Below are positions 5,048-12,377 of a stretch of 64,000 nucleotides of DNA, one piece after another. Both the position numbers and the translations under genes were made by a program. Numbering within the stretch: the first letter of the stretch is position 1; every line of letters begins with the position of its first letter. The notes beneath the pieces were generated by a model. That model saw nothing but the letters and a program-made list of their open reading frames with translations. It was not told the origin of the DNA and did no database searches. The stretch comes from Escherichia coli. Lineage in GTDB: Bacteria > Pseudomonadota > Gammaproteobacteria > Enterobacterales > Enterobacteriaceae. The stretch lies in assembly GCF_003018115.1 (NCBI RefSeq), contig NZ_CP027457.1. One strand, written 5' to 3'.

Positions 5048-8000
5048 TTAGTTATTTTGTTGACAGAAAACAGCAATCTCCTGGTCCAGCTCTGCAATGT
5101 GTTCTTTTACAGAGTTCAGCAACTGAAGAATTTCAGGCTTACTGTCATCTGAAACAGGTGTTATTTCTAACTGATGGCTAATATTAATCAACTTTTGCAA
5201 ATTCAGGATGTTAGCCGCACCGTGGATGCGATGAATACACTGATGGAAAGTTCTATTATCGCCAGCTTCTAGTGCATGAAACGCAGCGGATAAATCTTTA
5301 TGTGTTTCATGCTGGAAAGTCATGAGAATCTCCTGCATCAGTTGTAGATCGTTCGCCGTATTATTTTTCAGGGCCTCGATATCAAGGTGGCGATACTGAG
5401 GTACAATATGCGCAACCTGGTGTAACTGACTTAAATGTGTTTTCAGTACATCCAGGGTCAACGGTTTGAACAAACATAAGTTCATGCCGCAATTTAACCC
5501 TTTTTCACGTTCGTTAGCCTGTGCGTTGGCTGTAAGCCCCCAGATGGGTAAGGACGAATTTTGCTCACGGAGTTTGCGAGTCAACTCAAAACCATCCATA
5601 TTCGGCATATTAACGTCAGTAATAAGCAGATCATAATGTTGCATACTGACTTTGTGTAGCGCTTGCACACCATCAGTGGCTTCGTCAACATCATATCCTA
5701 ATAGATTTAGCTGGCGTTTGAGTAATAGCCTGTTGGTCGGATGATCATCCGCGATTAATATGCTCAACTTTTCAGGTAGTGTGATAGGTTGTTCTGCTTT
5801 TGCCTCGACAGCCGCCACTTGTTGGGTAATTTCTACCGGGATTGTGATCGTAAATGTTGTTCCTATGCCTGGATGACTTTCTAATGACAAATCACCCTGC
5901 ATGTTTTTAATTAATTCTTTGCAGATCATTAAGCCTAAACCAGAACCTGTTTGCTGACGACCTGCACTTGTTTGGCTATAACGTTTAAACAGTTGTTGTT
6001 GTTCTTCCTGTGATAATCCACTTCCAGAATCCATAATCGTCATTTTGATTACAGCGTGGTTGTCATCAATGTGACCCAGGGAGGTCGTAATTTTTACTGC
6101 CCCCTCGGTGGTAAATTTGAGAGCATTACTCAGTAAATTTGATAAGACCTGCTTAAACGCCTGAGGGTCGATCTTAACTAGGTAATGTTCAGGAAACGTA
6201 CTGCTGCAACTTAATGCGATCGATTTGCTTGCAGCAATCGCACCGAAAGAGTGACAAGTGTTCTGGACTAAAGTAGGAATATCGACCCATTGTGGTTGAA
6301 GTTGATAGTTACCCGATTCAATTTTGTCGACATCAAGGATTTCACCAATTAAGCCGAGGAGTGATTGTCCGGTGGCGTAGGCAAGTGAAATCGCCTCCAC
6401 CCGTTGTTCCTTGCTAAGACCAGAACCCGACAGAAGTTCCAGGAAGCCCATAATAGAGCTTATTGGTGTTCTTATTTCGTGACTCATCGTTGCCAGAAAC
6501 TGACTTTTTGCTACGGTAGCCTTTATCGCTTTATTTTTTTCTACCTCGAGTGCATTAATTAGATCACGCGTTTCAGTAATATCTTGCCAACCACAAATAT
6601 ATACTGCATTGTCACTTGCAGGAAGATTGCATAATGTATGCCAGTGATTAATGCATCTTTTCTCGATGCCATTATCAATTTCAAATACCTGTGTGTATAT
6701 TGTTCGGTTTTCTTTCGTCTCTGCTGTGACTTCATGCGTATTAGAAAAAACATCTTTAAAGGGTGATTCACTGTTTTCTAATGGCAACATTGCATTTTTG
6801 TAGTAATCAGCAGTGAAATAATGTTCAAATGCACTATTGTGACTAATGACATTACCTTGCCAGTTTACAACATAAGTTGGATTCGGTAAGGAGTCCGAGA
6901 GCGCTTTCCGGAATGATATTTGGTTTTCTAAATCACCCTGAATGACTTTACGACGACGAACTGAGCGTAACAGGTAGAATCCCCATAAAAGGCTACTGCC
7001 AACTAATAAAACGGATAATGTCGTAACAATATAAAATTGCTCGCTATAGAGGTCCCATGTGTCAATGGTCACATTGGGCATTTTAATCCATTTTTCCGTC
7101 AGGCGCAGAACTTCGCTTGGGGGGATTGCATTCAGTGCTTTATTAATAATATCCTTAAGTTCCGGTTCTCCGCGAGGAAAAGCGAACGAAAGCGATGCAT
7201 TCGGAACGCCGGGAATAAGAAAATGATAAAGTTCATTAGGATAGTAATGGTCGATCATGTAACGCGAATTTAGCTGTGTCGCGACCAGAGCATCAAGTTC
7301 ACCTTCCTTGACCTTGTGAAATGCAGCGCTGGCGTTATCGACTTTTATCCACTCTACCTCCGGATACATCTCTTTTAATTGCGAATGCAGCTCATAATAA
7401 TATGGAATGGCAACTTTCATTCCTTTTTTTAATGTTTGTTCACTGTCAGGCGCTTTTTGCATGACAAAAACGTAAGGCGTTGTTATGAAGGCTTCAGCAA
7501 ATAAAACATTATTTTCTCTATCTTCACTATAAATAGCACCGGGTAATATATCCCATCCGCCGGGATTCAGCTGTGTTCCGGCATGGATATTGTGTGAAAC
7601 GGTGATCGGAGAAAAATTTAAACCTGTTTGCAAGGTAATAATATTAAGAATGTCCCCCATAACGCCCCGAACCGAGCCATTTTCATCCGTCATAGAATAG
7701 GGGGGCGAGTAAGGATTTTCCAGCACCTTTAAATCGGGATGCTGCTTAATCCACTGTTTTTCATGTTCAGTGAGTTCTAATGGCTTGTTCAGAAAGGCTA
7801 GGTTTCCTGTATCAAGCCAATTTTGTGATACTTCATAGCGAACTTCATTTGTTAAAGCATCAACAAATCGATTGAGTACTTCATTAAGAATGACAGATTC
7901 TTTTCTGGTTAAGAAGAAGTTATATTGACGCGGTGAGTTATAATATTTCACTACATTTAAGGAGTGAGTGAAATAGCGGGAAATCATACTGCTGGTAATG

Positions 8001-8641
8001 ATGTTACTACCAATAAAGTAATCATTCTGTCCGGCTGAGACGGATGCTAATGCCTGATATAAATTTGTAAAAGAGATAATTGTTGCTTTTGGAAATGATT
8101 GATGAATTATCTCGTCAGGGGGATAATTTGCTACTCGAGCAATATTTACTGGTTTTGATGAGGTAAGCGGTCGCATTGAATCGTGAAGGGTGGTGACCAG
8201 CGCCGGAAAGGTAATTATCAGTGGTTTGGTTGCAGCAATGTCATCATTAAGAGGCGGCGAAGCAACTAAATGTGATAACACTATATCGACTTCACCTTCT
8301 TCCAGCGCGTCCATTGCTTTTTGATGATCGGCGTATTCCCGGAGTGTTAATTTGATATTTAACGCTCTTTTTAAAAGATTTAAATAATCAGCATTAATAC
8401 CACGAACCCGTTGCTGCGAATCGGTATGCAACAACGTAGCCGTTTGGGACTTATGTACTGCAATCACAAGATTTTTTTTGCTCGCTAACCAACGTAATTC
8501 CTTGTTGCTCAGACGTAGTGGATCAAGTGTGACACGGTTGTTACTACTGATGCCACGATATTCGATGTAATCTTCGTCTGCGAAACTTATGGTCGACCAA
8601 AGACCACAACAGAGAAGAAAAATATAGGGTAAAAACTTCAT
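5048..8641 (-). CDS. evgS: Hybrid sensor histidine kinase EvgS (periplasmic binding-protein-like domains, HisKA/HATPase, receiver, HPt)
   Basis: 1197-aa ORF; H-box SHEIRTP, receiver domain with DVNMPNMDG, C-terminal HPt; 2 bp downstream of evgA. Confidence 0.95.
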   Translation of the reverse strand: MKFLPYIFLLCCGLWSTISFADEDYIEYRGISSNNRVTLDPLRLSNKELRWLASKKNLVIAVHKSQTATLLHTDSQQRVRGINADYLNLLKRALNIKLTLREYADHQKAMDALEEGEVDIVLSHLVASPPLNDDIAATKPLIITFPALVTTLHDSMRPLTSSKPVNIARVANYPPDEIIHQSFPKATIISFTNLYQALASVSAGQNDYFIGSNIITSSMISRYFTHSLNVVKYYNSPRQYNFFLTRKESVILNEVLNRFVDALTNEVRYEVSQNWLDTGNLAFLNKPLELTEHEKQWIKQHPDLKVLENPYSPPYSMTDENGSVRGVMGDILNIITLQTGLNFSPITVSHNIHAGTQLNPGGWDILPGAIYSEDRENNVLFAEAFITTPYVFVMQKAPDSEQTLKKGMKVAIPYYYELHSQLKEMYPEVEWIKVDNASAAFHKVKEGELDALVATQLNSRYMIDHYYPNELYHFLIPGVPNASLSFAFPRGEPELKDIINKALNAIPPSEVLRLTEKWIKMPNVTIDTWDLYSEQFYIVTTLSVLLVGSSLLWGFYLLRSVRRRKVIQGDLENQISFRKALSDSLPNPTYVVNWQGNVISHNSAFEHYFTADYYKNAMLPLENSESPFKDVFSNTHEVTAETKENRTIYTQVFEIDNGIEKRCINHWHTLCNLPASDNAVYICGWQDITETRDLINALEVEKNKAIKATVAKSQFLATMSHEIRTPISSIMGFLELLSGSGLSKEQRVEAISLAYATGQSLLGLIGEILDVDKIESGNYQLQPQWVDIPTLVQNTCHSFGAIAASKSIALSCSSTFPEHYLVKIDPQAFKQVLSNLLSNALKFTTEGAVKITTSLGHIDDNHAVIKMTIMDSGSGLSQEEQQQLFKRYSQTSAGRQQTGSGLGLMICKELIKNMQGDLSLESHPGIGTTFTITIPVEITQQVAAVEAKAEQPITLPEKLSILIADDHPTNRLLLKRQLNLLGYDVDEATDGVQALHKVSMQHYDLLITDVNMPNMDGFELTRKLREQNSSLPIWGLTANAQANEREKGLNCGMNLCLFKPLTLDVLKTHLSQLHQVAHIVPQYRHLDIEALKNNTANDLQLMQEILMTFQHETHKDLSAAFHALEAGDNRTFHQCIHRIHGAANILNLQKLINISHQLEITPVSDDSKPEILQLLNSVKEHIAELDQEIAVFCQQNN

Positions 8642-8645
8642 GTGG

Positions 8646-9260
8646 TTAGCCGATTTTGTTACGTTGTGCGAATGTGTAAAGATCCATCAGTGATTTACAT
8701 TCTAATTTTTCCATCAGGCGACTTTTATAAGTGCTGACAGTTTTGTTGCTGATGAACATTTTTTCAGCAATGTCATTATTATCCTTGCCATCAAGAATAT
8801 AGCGCATGACACTAATTTCTTGTTTCGATAAGGAGTCGAGTTTTTGCTGGTCGGACGTTAAACTTCCAACAAACCGGTTGAGAGAGAAGGGGAAATAGCA
8901 GTAGCCATTTTTTGCAGCTTCAATAGCCGCAATGATATTGTTCATGCCTTCTTTTTTACTCACGAAACCATTAGCGCCAGCATCAGCACAATGTTTCCCG
9001 TAAAAATGGTCATTTTTAGCGGAAACGATAATAATAATTCCGCTATATTGACGCTTTCTCAGCGTTTCTAACACCTGGATACCGTTAACTCCGGGGATAT
9101 CGACATCAATGATGACGATATCAGGCTTAAGTGTTTCCACCCGCTGAACGGCACTTCCGCCTTCAGTCAACTCTGCTAAGATTTCAATATCGTTTTTGAT
9201 CAATAAATTACGAATTGCTGCGATAGCAAGAGGATGGTCATCAATAATTATTGCGTTCAT
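8646..9260 (-). CDS. evgA: Response regulator EvgA (receiver + LuxR-type HTH)
   Basis: 204-aa ORF starting MNAIIIDDHPLA; operon with evgS. Confidence 0.95.
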   Translation of the reverse strand: MNAIIIDDHPLAIAAIRNLLIKNDIEILAELTEGGSAVQRVETLKPDIVIIDVDIPGVNGIQVLETLRKRQYSGIIIIVSAKNDHFYGKHCADAGANGFVSKKEGMNNIIAAIEAAKNGYCYFPFSLNRFVGSLTSDQQKLDSLSKQEISVMRYILDGKDNNDIAEKMFISNKTVSTYKSRLMEKLECKSLMDLYTFAQRNKIG

Positions 9261-9484
9261 AGATTATTCCCTTTGCAATGAAGCATCTCCCTTCTCCCTG
9301 TAGTAATACAGACATAAGGCATCATCTCATTTTCTCAATAAAAATAAGAAAATTTGAGCTTCCTTTAAGATAATTCGACAAGTATACCATATAAATAGTC
9401 GGCATATATGAAATGTCAACAATAAAATCAGGGATTGTACCGATGATTTATAGTTTCACATTAGCACTATAAGTCTTCTCACTA

Positions 9485-9502
9485 ATCCTACAGGCGTAAG
9501 AA
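9485..9502. promoter_or_regulatory. Putative EvgA box in evgA-emrK divergent intergenic region
   Basis: atcctacaggcgtaagaa matches inverted-repeat consensus TTCYTACA-N2-TGTARGAA at most positions. Confidence 0.5.
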
Positions 9503-9675
9503 TTGTATTGCAAAAGCCACGGTTTAGTCCTCTGTTGTTTTTTTTGCACCTCATTTAAATTAGGCCTCCAACGTTCCTGGGATAATGTGCAACACATGCA
9601 CTGTGTTTGATATGAAGAATGAATACTCTTTTCATTCAATTCATAAATTTCATCTATGCGAAATGAGAGATAATA

Positions 9676-10839
9676 GTGGAACAGATTAATTCAAATAAAA
9701 AACATTCTAACAGAAGAAAATACTTTTCTTTATTGGCGATAGTTTTATTTATTGCGTTTTCAGGTGCTTATGCCTATTGGTCAATGGAATTAGAAGACAT
9801 GATTAGTACAGATGACGCCTATGTCACGGGGAATGCAGATCTAATTTCTGCACAAGTCTCAGGTAGTGTCACTGTAGTTAATCATAAAGATACGAACTAC
9901 GTTCGACAGGGTGACATTTTAGTTTCACTGGATAAAACTGATGCCACTATCGCACTCAATAAAGCTAAAAATAATCTGGCAAATATTGTTCGGCAAACGA
10001 ATAAACTGTACTTACAGGATAAACAATACAGTGCCGAAGTCGCTTCAGCACGTATTCAGTATCAACAATCTTTAGAAGATTATAACCGTCGTGTGCCTTT
10101 AGCGAAGCAGGGGGTTATTTCAAAAGAAACGCTGGAGCATACCAAAGATACGTTAATAAGTAGCAAAGCGGCATTGAATGCCGCTATCCAGGCTTATAAA
10201 GCGAATAAAGCTTTAGTAATGAACACACCATTAAACCGTCAGCCACAAGTCGTTGAAGCGGCGGATGCAACTAAAGAAGCCTGGTTGGCGCTTAAACGTA
10301 CGGATATTAAGAGTCCGGTTACCGGCTATATTGCCCAGAGAAGTGTTCAGGTCGGCGAAACAGTGAGCCCCGGACAATCGTTAATGGCTGTCGTACCGGC
10401 ACGTCAAATGTGGGTTAATGCCAACTTTAAAGAAACACAACTCACAGATGTACGGATTGGTCAATCGGTCAATATTATCAGCGATCTTTATGGTGAGAAT
10501 GTTGTGTTTCATGGCCGGGTGACAGGGATCAATATGGGAACCGGCAATGCGTTCTCCTTATTACCTGCACAAAATGCGACAGGGAACTGGATCAAAATCG
10601 TTCAGCGTGTACCGGTTGAAGTTTCTCTTGATCCAAAAGAACTCATGGAACACCCCTTGCGCATTGGTTTATCGATGACTGCAACTATTGATACGAAGAA
10701 CGAAGACATTGCTGAGATGCCTGAGCTGGCTTCAACCGTGACGTCCATGCCGGCTTATACCAGTAAGGCTTTAGTTATCGATACCAGTCCGATAGAAAAA
10801 GAAATTAGCAACATTATTTCGCATAATGGACAACTTTAA
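9676..10839 (+). CDS. emrK: Multidrug efflux membrane fusion protein EmrK
   Basis: 387-aa ORF, N-terminal TM anchor then coiled-coil/HlyD-like region; 1-nt overlap with emrY. Confidence 0.92.
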   Translation: MEQINSNKKHSNRRKYFSLLAIVLFIAFSGAYAYWSMELEDMISTDDAYVTGNADLISAQVSGSVTVVNHKDTNYVRQGDILVSLDKTDATIALNKAKNNLANIVRQTNKLYLQDKQYSAEVASARIQYQQSLEDYNRRVPLAKQGVISKETLEHTKDTLISSKAALNAAIQAYKANKALVMNTPLNRQPQVVEAADATKEAWLALKRTDIKSPVTGYIAQRSVQVGETVSPGQSLMAVVPARQMWVNANFKETQLTDVRIGQSVNIISDLYGENVVFHGRVTGINMGTGNAFSLLPAQNATGNWIKIVQRVPVEVSLDPKELMEHPLRIGLSMTATIDTKNEDIAEMPELASTVTSMPAYTSKALVIDTSPIEKEISNIISHNGQL

Positions 10840-12377
10840 TGGCAATCACTAAATCAACTCCGGCACCATTAACCGGTGGGACGTTATGGTGCGTCACTAT
10901 TGCATTGTCATTAGCGACGTTTATGCAAATGTTGGATTCCACTATTTCTAACGTCGCAATACCGACAATATCTGGCTTTCTGGGAGCATCAACAGACGAA
11001 GGCACCTGGGTTATCACCTCGTTTGGCGTAGCAAATGCCATTGCGATCCCTGTTACCGGCAGGCTGGCACAAAGAATAGGCGAATTAAGGTTATTTTTAC
11101 TTTCAGTCACTTTTTTTTCGCTGTCTTCCTTAATGTGTAGTTTATCGACCAATCTTGATGTGCTGATATTTTTTAGAGTCGTTCAGGGGTTAATGGCAGG
11201 GCCGTTAATTCCACTGTCACAGAGTTTATTATTAAGGAATTATCCACCAGAAAAAAGAACATTTGCTCTGGCATTATGGTCAATGACCGTGATTATCGCT
11301 CCGATATGTGGGCCGATATTGGGCGGTTATATTTGTGATAACTTTAGCTGGGGTTGGATATTTTTAATCAATGTCCCTATGGGTATTATCGTCCTGACAT
11401 TATGCTTAACCTTACTTAAAGGAAGAGAAACTGAGACTTCACCGGTCAAAATGAATCTACCAGGACTGACCCTGTTAGTGCTCGGTGTTGGTGGCTTGCA
11501 AATTATGCTTGATAAAGGGCGCGATCTGGATTGGTTCAACTCGAGTACAATAATAATATTAACAGTAGTATCAGTTATTTCTCTGATCTCTTTAGTCATT
11601 TGGGAGTCGACCTCAGAGAACCCGATTCTTGATCTCAGTTTGTTTAAGTCCCGTAACTTCACTATTGGTATTGTGAGTATCACATGCGCGTATTTATTTT
11701 ACTCTGGAGCGATCGTCCTTATGCCGCAGTTACTCCAGGAAACGATGGGGTATAATGCGATATGGGCCGGACTTGCTTATGCGCCCATCGGCATCATGCC
11801 ACTATTAATTTCACCTTTGATAGGACGTTATGGCAACAAAATAGACATGCGGTTGTTAGTGACATTTAGTTTTTTGATGTATGCGGTTTGCTATTACTGG
11901 CGTTCTGTGACATTTATGCCAACGATTGATTTTACAGGCATCATTTTGCCACAGTTTTTCCAGGGATTCGCCGTTGCCTGTTTCTTTTTACCCTTAACAA
12001 CGATTTCGTTTTCAGGGTTGCCAGATAATAAATTTGCCAATGCCTCGAGTATGAGTAATTTTTTTCGTACCTTGTCAGGATCAGTTGGTACATCGTTGAC
12101 AATGACGCTGTGGGGGCGACGCGAATCGTTACACCATAGTCAGTTGACAGCAACCATCGATCAATTTAACCCTGTGTTTAATTCATCGTCACAAATTATG
12201 GATAAATACTATGGTTCGCTTTCAGGAGTTCTTAATGAAATTAATAATGAAATAACCCAGCAGTCACTTTCTATTTCTGCAAATGAGATTTTCCGTATGG
12301 CGGCTATTGCTTTTATCTTACTTACGGTTTTGGTTTGGTTTGCGAAACCGCCGTTTACAGCGAAAGGCGTTGGGTGA
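10839..12377 (+). CDS. emrY: MFS multidrug efflux pump EmrY (14-TMS, EmrB family)
   Basis: 512-aa hydrophobic ORF translationally coupled to emrK. Confidence 0.92.
   Translation: MAITKSTPAPLTGGTLWCVTIALSLATFMQMLDSTISNVAIPTISGFLGASTDEGTWVITSFGVANAIAIPVTGRLAQRIGELRLFLLSVTFFSLSSLMCSLSTNLDVLIFFRVVQGLMAGPLIPLSQSLLLRNYPPEKRTFALALWSMTVIIAPICGPILGGYICDNFSWGWIFLINVPMGIIVLTLCLTLLKGRETETSPVKMNLPGLTLLVLGVGGLQIMLDKGRDLDWFNSSTIIILTVVSVISLISLVIWESTSENPILDLSLFKSRNFTIGIVSITCAYLFYSGAIVLMPQLLQETMGYNAIWAGLAYAPIGIMPLLISPLIGRYGNKIDMRLLVTFSFLMYAVCYYWRSVTFMPTIDFTGIILPQFFQGFAVACFFLPLTTISFSGLPDNKFANASSMSNFFRTLSGSVGTSLTMTLWGRRESLHHSQLTATIDQFNPVFNSSSQIMDKYYGSLSGVLNEINNEITQQSLSISANEIFRMAAIAFILLTVLVWFAKPPFTAKGVG

Follow-up and report, generated by a model that had tools for sequence, protein, structure and literature searches.

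The evgA and emrK genes of Escherichia coli are transcribed divergently from a common spacer, and this arrangement raises two questions: where in the spacer does the response regulator EvgA bind, and which of the two operons does it control from there? The window analysed here, a stretch of 64,000 nucleotides, belongs to an E. coli chromosome in which open reading frames and RefSeq annotation place evgS and evgA on the minus strand and emrK and emrY on the plus strand (Table 1). The two operons are separated by 415 bp (9261-9675), bounded by the start codon of evgA at 9260 on the minus strand and by the GTG of emrK at 9676 on the plus strand. The products of evgA and evgS supply the protein that reads an EvgA box. 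A 615-bp query covering the spacer (9161-9775) matches strain A30 at 100% identity and K-12 at 98.2%, the strain of the window being a non-K-12 one, and the region is present in 5,398 of 5,426 complete E. coli genomes. Over the spacer itself, nine substitutions and no indels distinguish the window from K-12, whose coordinates are obtained as MG1655 = 2493015 minus the window coordinate. An earlier note on this DNA had singled out an 18-bp inverted repeat at 9485-9502, located between evgAS and emrKY, as fitting the EvgA consensus and as consistent with activation of emrKY by EvgA. The flanking genes are indeed those named, the sequence ATCCTACAGGCGTAAGAA sits exactly at these positions, and none of the nine substitutions falls inside it.

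Table 1. Genes, promoter elements, and EvgA-related motifs of the evg-emr locus in window coordinates.
Feature	Position	Strand	Description
evgS	5048-8641	-	Sensor kinase
evgA	8646-9260	-	Response regulator; receiver and GerE/LuxR helix-turn-helix domains (Response_reg, GerE)
evgL	9257-9286	-	Leader peptide MLHCKGNNL; nine codons, intact; stop codon overlaps the evgA ATG; b4781 in MG1655
Putative evgA promoter 2	9389-9381	-	Extended -10 TGgTATACT; start at 9374
Putative evgA promoter 1	9419-9414 (-35), 9396-9391 (-10)	-	TTGACA and ATTTAT, 17-nt gap; start near 9384
EvgA box ATCCTACAGGCGTAAGAA	9485-9502 (MG1655 2483513-2483530)	+	Layout ATCCTACA-GG-CGTAAGAA towards emrK; identical in K-12
Promoter-distal half-site ATCCTACA	9485-9492	+	Compared with TTCYTACA, mismatch at A9485; core CCTACA (9487-9492) invariant
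Promoter-proximal half-site CGTAAGAA	9495-9502	+	Compared with TGTARGAA, mismatch at C9495
TTGTATT	9503-9509	+	Conserved extension directly 3' of the box
AGTCCT	9526-9531	+	Fixed at +24 to +29 after the box; common to other EvgA promoters
TAAATT	9556-9561	+	Predicted -10 hexamer of emrK
emrK	9676-10839	+	GTG start; HlyD-type membrane-fusion protein
emrY	10839-12377	+	Second gene of the target operon emrKY (9676-12377)

The consensus against which the element was compared was itself checked against real K-12 sites. Masuda and Church, in 2003, reportedly described an 18-bp EvgA motif built as an inverted repeat of TTCPyTACA, with the consensus TTCYTACA-N2-TGTARGAA. With its two 8-bp half-sites and 2-bp gap, the element at 9485-9502 matches this consensus at 14 of the 16 specified positions, and it is the only sequence with two mismatches or fewer on either strand of the window. 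By chance, 0.04 such matches are expected per 64 kb, or about 0.0003 per 415-bp spacer, and 4 of 100 shuffled sequences gave any. The fit claimed in the earlier note is therefore borne out. A ranking made independently of the consensus, in which 18-mers were scored by their summed best similarity to the K-12 regions upstream of safA, ydeP, frc, yfdX, and yegR, puts those starting at 9485-9487 above all others among the 398 of the spacer (score 70, background mean 56.2, sd 2.8, z of about 5 for the box). Likewise, when the whole window is scanned with a leave-one-out weight matrix built solely from the six non-emrK sites of these operons, 9485-9502 comes out on top, with 17.6 bits vs. 12.8 for the next unrelated match; the box scores 17.6 and 16.5 bits on its two strands. 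Within the spacer, scans with the consensus and with the weight matrix found no second full box and no further paired half-sites.

The description of the element as an inverted repeat is right as to the coordinates but too strong as to the symmetry. The two arms are self-complementary at just five of eight positions, a value that 16 of the 398 spacer positions equal, and a repeat search did not report 9485-9502 as an inverted repeat, in agreement with this low symmetry. Taken alone, the dyad symmetry of the box is not above chance. The element is a match to the consensus and not a true palindrome, and it lacks the full symmetry of a perfect palindromic operator.

Its conservation was followed in an alignment of eight spacers. 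Six of them represent E. coli lineages, and the other two belong to divergent orthologous loci that were retrieved with the EvgA protein: L005, a divergent Escherichia locus under the label E. coli SCPM-O-B-8794 (85% spacer identity), and L006, under the label Yersinia vastinensis (65%). The longest run invariant in all eight sequences, GTAAGAATTGTATT (9496-9509), includes GTAAGAA, and the CCTACA core of the distal half-site is also invariant in all eight. Substitutions in the box are confined to the 2-bp spacer, to the two outermost positions 9485-9486, and to C9495. The distal half-site is TTCCTACA in L005 and TGCCTACA in L006, and the proximal half-site is TGTAAGAA in both loci; the complete L005 box, TTCCTACAGGTGTAAGAA, is a perfect consensus, and in that of L006, TGCCTACACGTGTAAGAA, C9495 is corrected and one mismatch is left. 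At a larger scale, among 5,397 E. coli genomes, 4,888 match 9482-9511 exactly; the common variant, G9493T, which another 370 have, is located in the 2-bp spacer, and both half-sites are kept in at least 97% of the genomes. The box is among the most conserved elements of the spacer and is the most conserved one on the emrK side; the invariance of its cores down to 65% spacer identity (n = 8) points to purifying selection on the half-sites. No box was found within 3 kb of EvgA relatives with 66-71% identity in Hafnia, Klebsiella, Enterobacter, and Buttiauxella; hence, the comparative support comes solely from close orthologues. The TTGTATT sequence that follows the box, a feature found in emrK promoters only, does not vary even in L006, with its spacer identity of 65%.

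The motif of the EvgA box is found again ahead of other members of the EvgA regulon. In K-12, it is found in the intergenic regions upstream of frc, where the box is perfect (16/16; L003 5986-6003), of safA and yegR, with one mismatch each, and of ydeP, with two mismatches, which compares with the two positions, A9485 and C9495, at which the emrK box departs from the consensus. Unlike emrK, yfdX is preceded by a tandem pair of boxes, 38 bp from one another, with one and three mismatches (K-12, L003 6980-7035). According to work of Masuda and Church from 2002 and 2003, the safA, ydeP, frc, yfdX, and yegR operons are said to be activated by EvgA. Direct control of ydeP by EvgA, and control of safA-ydeO and Frc by EvgS/EvgA, have been described (PMC8174306 among other sources), and an EvgA binding site is present at all genes known as direct EvgA targets (PMC4283999). 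The emrK box has the same 8-2-8 layout and the same polarity as the K-12 boxes of ydeP, safA-ydeO, frc, yfdX, and yegR, even though, shared elements aside, the emrK spacer is unrelated to the safA/ydeP and frc/yfdX spacers. Those spacers look homologous within each pair, safA with ydeP and frc with yfdX, and this likeness suggests that the paired promoters arose by duplication.

The polarity of the box indicates which of the two operons it serves. Written towards the regulated gene, all boxes read nnCCTACA-NN-YGTAAGAA, and the emrK box conforms to this pattern when it is read towards emrK. Moreover, each of the six K-12 EvgA promoters has a -10-like hexamer that starts at +53/+54 from the box (emrK, TAAATT; safA, TATATT; ydeP, TAATTT; frc, TATTCT; yfdX, TATGAT; yegR, TATTAT). 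This offset is the best of those scanned, and under a strict filter the hexamer is retained in five of these promoters. Thus, the shared polarity and the fixed distance to the -10 hexamer make the box point to emrK. No good -35 hexamer is found ahead of the emrK TAAATT, as expected of an activator-dependent promoter. From this geometry, transcription of emrK is predicted to start near 9568 (MG1655 ~2483447), which would give a leader of about 108 nt and place the centre of the box near -75. A ydeP RNA probe begins at -178 from the ATG (PMC11210196), and this position falls at box offset +66, equivalent to the predicted emrK start.

Several other candidate elements of this region were considered. 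AGTCCT (9526-9531) was rejected as the -35 hexamer of emrK, since the gap to TAAATT would be 24 nt. A generic sigma-70 scan, which returned a single weak candidate on the plus strand, upstream of the box (9399-9428), did not pick up the promoters of evgA and was for that reason set aside. In the predicted emrK leader, a terminator-like hairpin (GTGCA-ACACA-TGCAC at 9587-9601, then TGTGTTTGAT) is weakly conserved in the divergent loci. The idea of an attenuator at this place was dropped, the predicted leader (9568-9690) folding unconvincingly when compared with shuffled sequences (z = -1.8), and no match to any Rfam family was obtained for 9100-9850 at E-values up to 1.

We consider it very likely that 9485-9502 serves the emrKY promoter as its EvgA operator. 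The site is already known: it is the EvgA site of the K-12 emrK-evgA spacer, at the same locus, between the same flanking genes, and with an 18-bp sequence that shows no difference. In E. coli K-12, an EvgA footprint in the emrK-evgA intergenic region was reportedly obtained by Kato and co-workers in 2000, and, going by secondary citations, the box probably coincides with the protected region. The emrKY promoter is a direct binding target of EvgA (Kato et al., 2000, as cited in PMC8174306, PMC9496106, PMC5706723), and emrKY is EvgA-dependent and used as a standard EvgA reporter (PMC8174306, PMC9496106, PMC5706723, PMC6393483). Activation of emrKY by EvgA, as the earlier note proposed, is accordingly supported by the recurrence of the box in the regulon, by its conservation, by its polarity and distance to the -10 hexamer, and by the literature on binding.

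In the mechanism that we propose, EvgS would sense mild acidity and alkali metals under aerobic conditions and phosphorylate EvgA. A dimer of phosphorylated EvgA would then bind the 18-bp box via its C-terminal GerE/LuxR helix-turn-helix domains, with one monomer on each 8-bp half-site, ATCCTACA and CGTAAGAA, and the 2-bp spacer in between. Positioned some 75 bp ahead of the predicted emrK start, bound EvgA would recruit RNA polymerase to a weak core promoter, leading to transcription of emrKY; we infer an upstream-activator (class I-like) mode involving contacts with RNA polymerase at emrK. The evgAS operon would not be appreciably controlled by the box and would be read from two self-sufficient core promoters located 110-120 bp away on the other strand. 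Operators of the NarL, UhpA, and LuxR type (GerE family) are likewise short inverted repeats to which a dimer binds, with 2 bp between the arms, and EvgA carries the corresponding Response_reg and GerE domains; however, their recognition sequence differs from the EvgA box and no cross-recognition is implied.

A second element shared by EvgA promoters bears on how the emrK promoter is arranged. At +24 to +29 after the box, the sequence is AGTCCT in emrK and safA, AGTCTT in ydeP, AATCCT in yegR, and TCTCTG in frc and yfdX. The spacing of A(G/A)TC(C/T)T in emrK, safA, and yegR taken together has a P of about 0.0005 against circular-shift nulls. One reading of this region is that EvgA acts as a class II, LuxR-like activator at about -41.5, with TTTAGT (9523-9528) as the -10 hexamer, a start near 9535, and AGTCCT as part of the core promoter or discriminator. 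TTTAGT sits 21-26 nt after the box and is replaced in L005 by the better TTTAAT, the A(G/A)TC(C/T)T motif stands at a constant distance from the box in independent promoters, and it is general knowledge that many activators of the LuxR/GerE family overlap the -35 region. However, the hexamers at the same offset are poor -10 sequences in safA (ACCAGT), ydeP (CAGAGT), and frc, offset 21 is not among the best offsets, and the only position that is consistently -10-like is +53/54. In addition, the ydeP leader start at -178 (PMC11210196) fits the distal geometry instead. We therefore regard a class II arrangement at emrK as unlikely.

With EvgA acting from an upstream box near -75, as we prefer, the +24 element may be a secondary EvgA contact of the BvgA kind. 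The A(G/A)TC(C/T)T motif resembles a third TCCTA/TCTTA half-site and is located at about -42 to -37 of the predicted emrK promoter. In the virulence promoters of Bordetella, the BvgA operators are made up of TTTCCTA heptads in inverted orientation, in which a primary dimer site lies upstream and cooperative sites follow downstream. BvgA is a homologous regulator, EvgA and EvgS being the E. coli relatives of BvgA and BvgS, the half-site core is similar (TTCCTA), and in both systems the primary site lies upstream of a promoter devoid of a good -35. In contrast, the length and the spacing of the half-sites differ between the two systems. It is established that several BvgA dimers spread cooperatively, whereas for EvgA the conserved +24 element does no more than suggest it.

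These features can be combined in a broader proposal, according to which EvgA promoters share an extended architecture of about 80 bp and not a lone 18-bp box, which would fit a BvgA-like mechanism. This architecture may comprise the polar box, whose YGTAAGAA half always faces the promoter, a CA-rich patch at +8, A(G/A)TC(C/T)T at +24 to +29, and the -10 hexamer at +54. A primary dimer of phosphorylated EvgA near -75 may then nucleate further EvgA contacts beside the -35 region. Because the L005 box is perfect and the L006 box has a single mismatch, the two mismatches of the emrK box may also represent a tuned setting of lower affinity, delaying emrKY relative to the acid-resistance genes. Taken jointly, the extended architecture and the tuned mismatches make up a tentative proposal, of which we remain rather doubtful.

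Lying in a divergent spacer, the box might also be a shared, bidirectional operator that autoregulates evgAS. It is quasi-palindromic, with comparable weight-matrix scores on the two strands, and an isolated sequence resembling a half-site, TTACTACA, occurs in the evgA leader (9299-9306, minus strand). On the evgA side, leader ends at -124 and -114 are used and sigma-70 and sigma-S promoters have been named (PMC11210196); the two sets of hexamers listed in Table 1 would account for these starts. The box, measured from its centre, lies about 110-120 bp upstream of the evgA starts, and, with a consensus TTGACA at -35 and an extended -10, evgA does not need an activator. Moreover, evgAS has been reported not to be autoregulated (PMC8174306), and the EvgA-dependent induction of emrK in macrophages takes place with no change in evgA mRNA (PMC6393483). 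The polarity common to the other EvgA promoters also points to emrK, so that control of evgAS from the box appears very unlikely.

Finally, that the box is a chance resemblance without regulatory function, with EvgA binding elsewhere in the spacer, is extremely improbable: a dyad symmetry common by chance and two consensus mismatches would agree with it, but such matches are too rare (0.04 expected per 64 kb, about 0.0003 per spacer), the spacer holds no other full box or paired half-sites, the element is among its most conserved ones with substitutions that avoid the half-site cores, and its geometry is common to five other EvgA promoters.

With 9485-9502 as the emrKY operator, this strain keeps the canonical wiring from EvgS/EvgA to the EmrKY efflux pump, the operator being unchanged from K-12. 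EmrKY is linked to bile-acid tolerance, drug tolerance, and survival in macrophages. The site itself brings no new biology; a known operator was placed to the exact base by reading the sequence alone. A mildly useful by-product is the fixed geometry shared by EvgA promoters, from which a testable position for the emrK start follows and which hints that EvgA may make secondary contacts.

The evgA leader has features of its own. The evgL reading frame is intact, and GGA motifs are found just upstream of it. Translational coupling and CsrA control have been described, and the arrangement seen here, with its stop/ATG overlap and GGA motifs, agrees with such control (PMC11210196). The leader also contains a 5-4-5 palindrome, CTGTAGTAATACAG (9298-9311), which holds the lone half-site-like sequence mentioned above; it could be a small RNA hairpin beside the CsrA sites, or a stray half-site.

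Some of the related records deserve a comment. The L006 locus is carried by a 590-kb contig labelled Yersinia (NZ_CACVAF010000001.1, IP38594) that contains emrK-evgA-evgS, with an EvgA of 94% identity and a conserved box; horizontal transfer may explain its presence under this label, as may an assembly that is mislabelled or chimeric, 6.6 kb having been inspected. A 398-bp contig labelled 'Rhizobium cauense' (NZ_JAEUAT010000078.1) encodes residues 1-114 of EvgA with 100% identity and almost certainly stems from contamination of the assembly with E. coli DNA. A plasmid-borne copy of evgS-evgA is found on p2018-02-2CC_1 (NZ_AP027874.1, 18590-24619), where the spacer is kept to just beyond the box, which is a variant beginning with CCTGCATG, and an IS1 element stands in place of emrK; in the E. 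coli collection, this region is present on some 20 records of plasmids.
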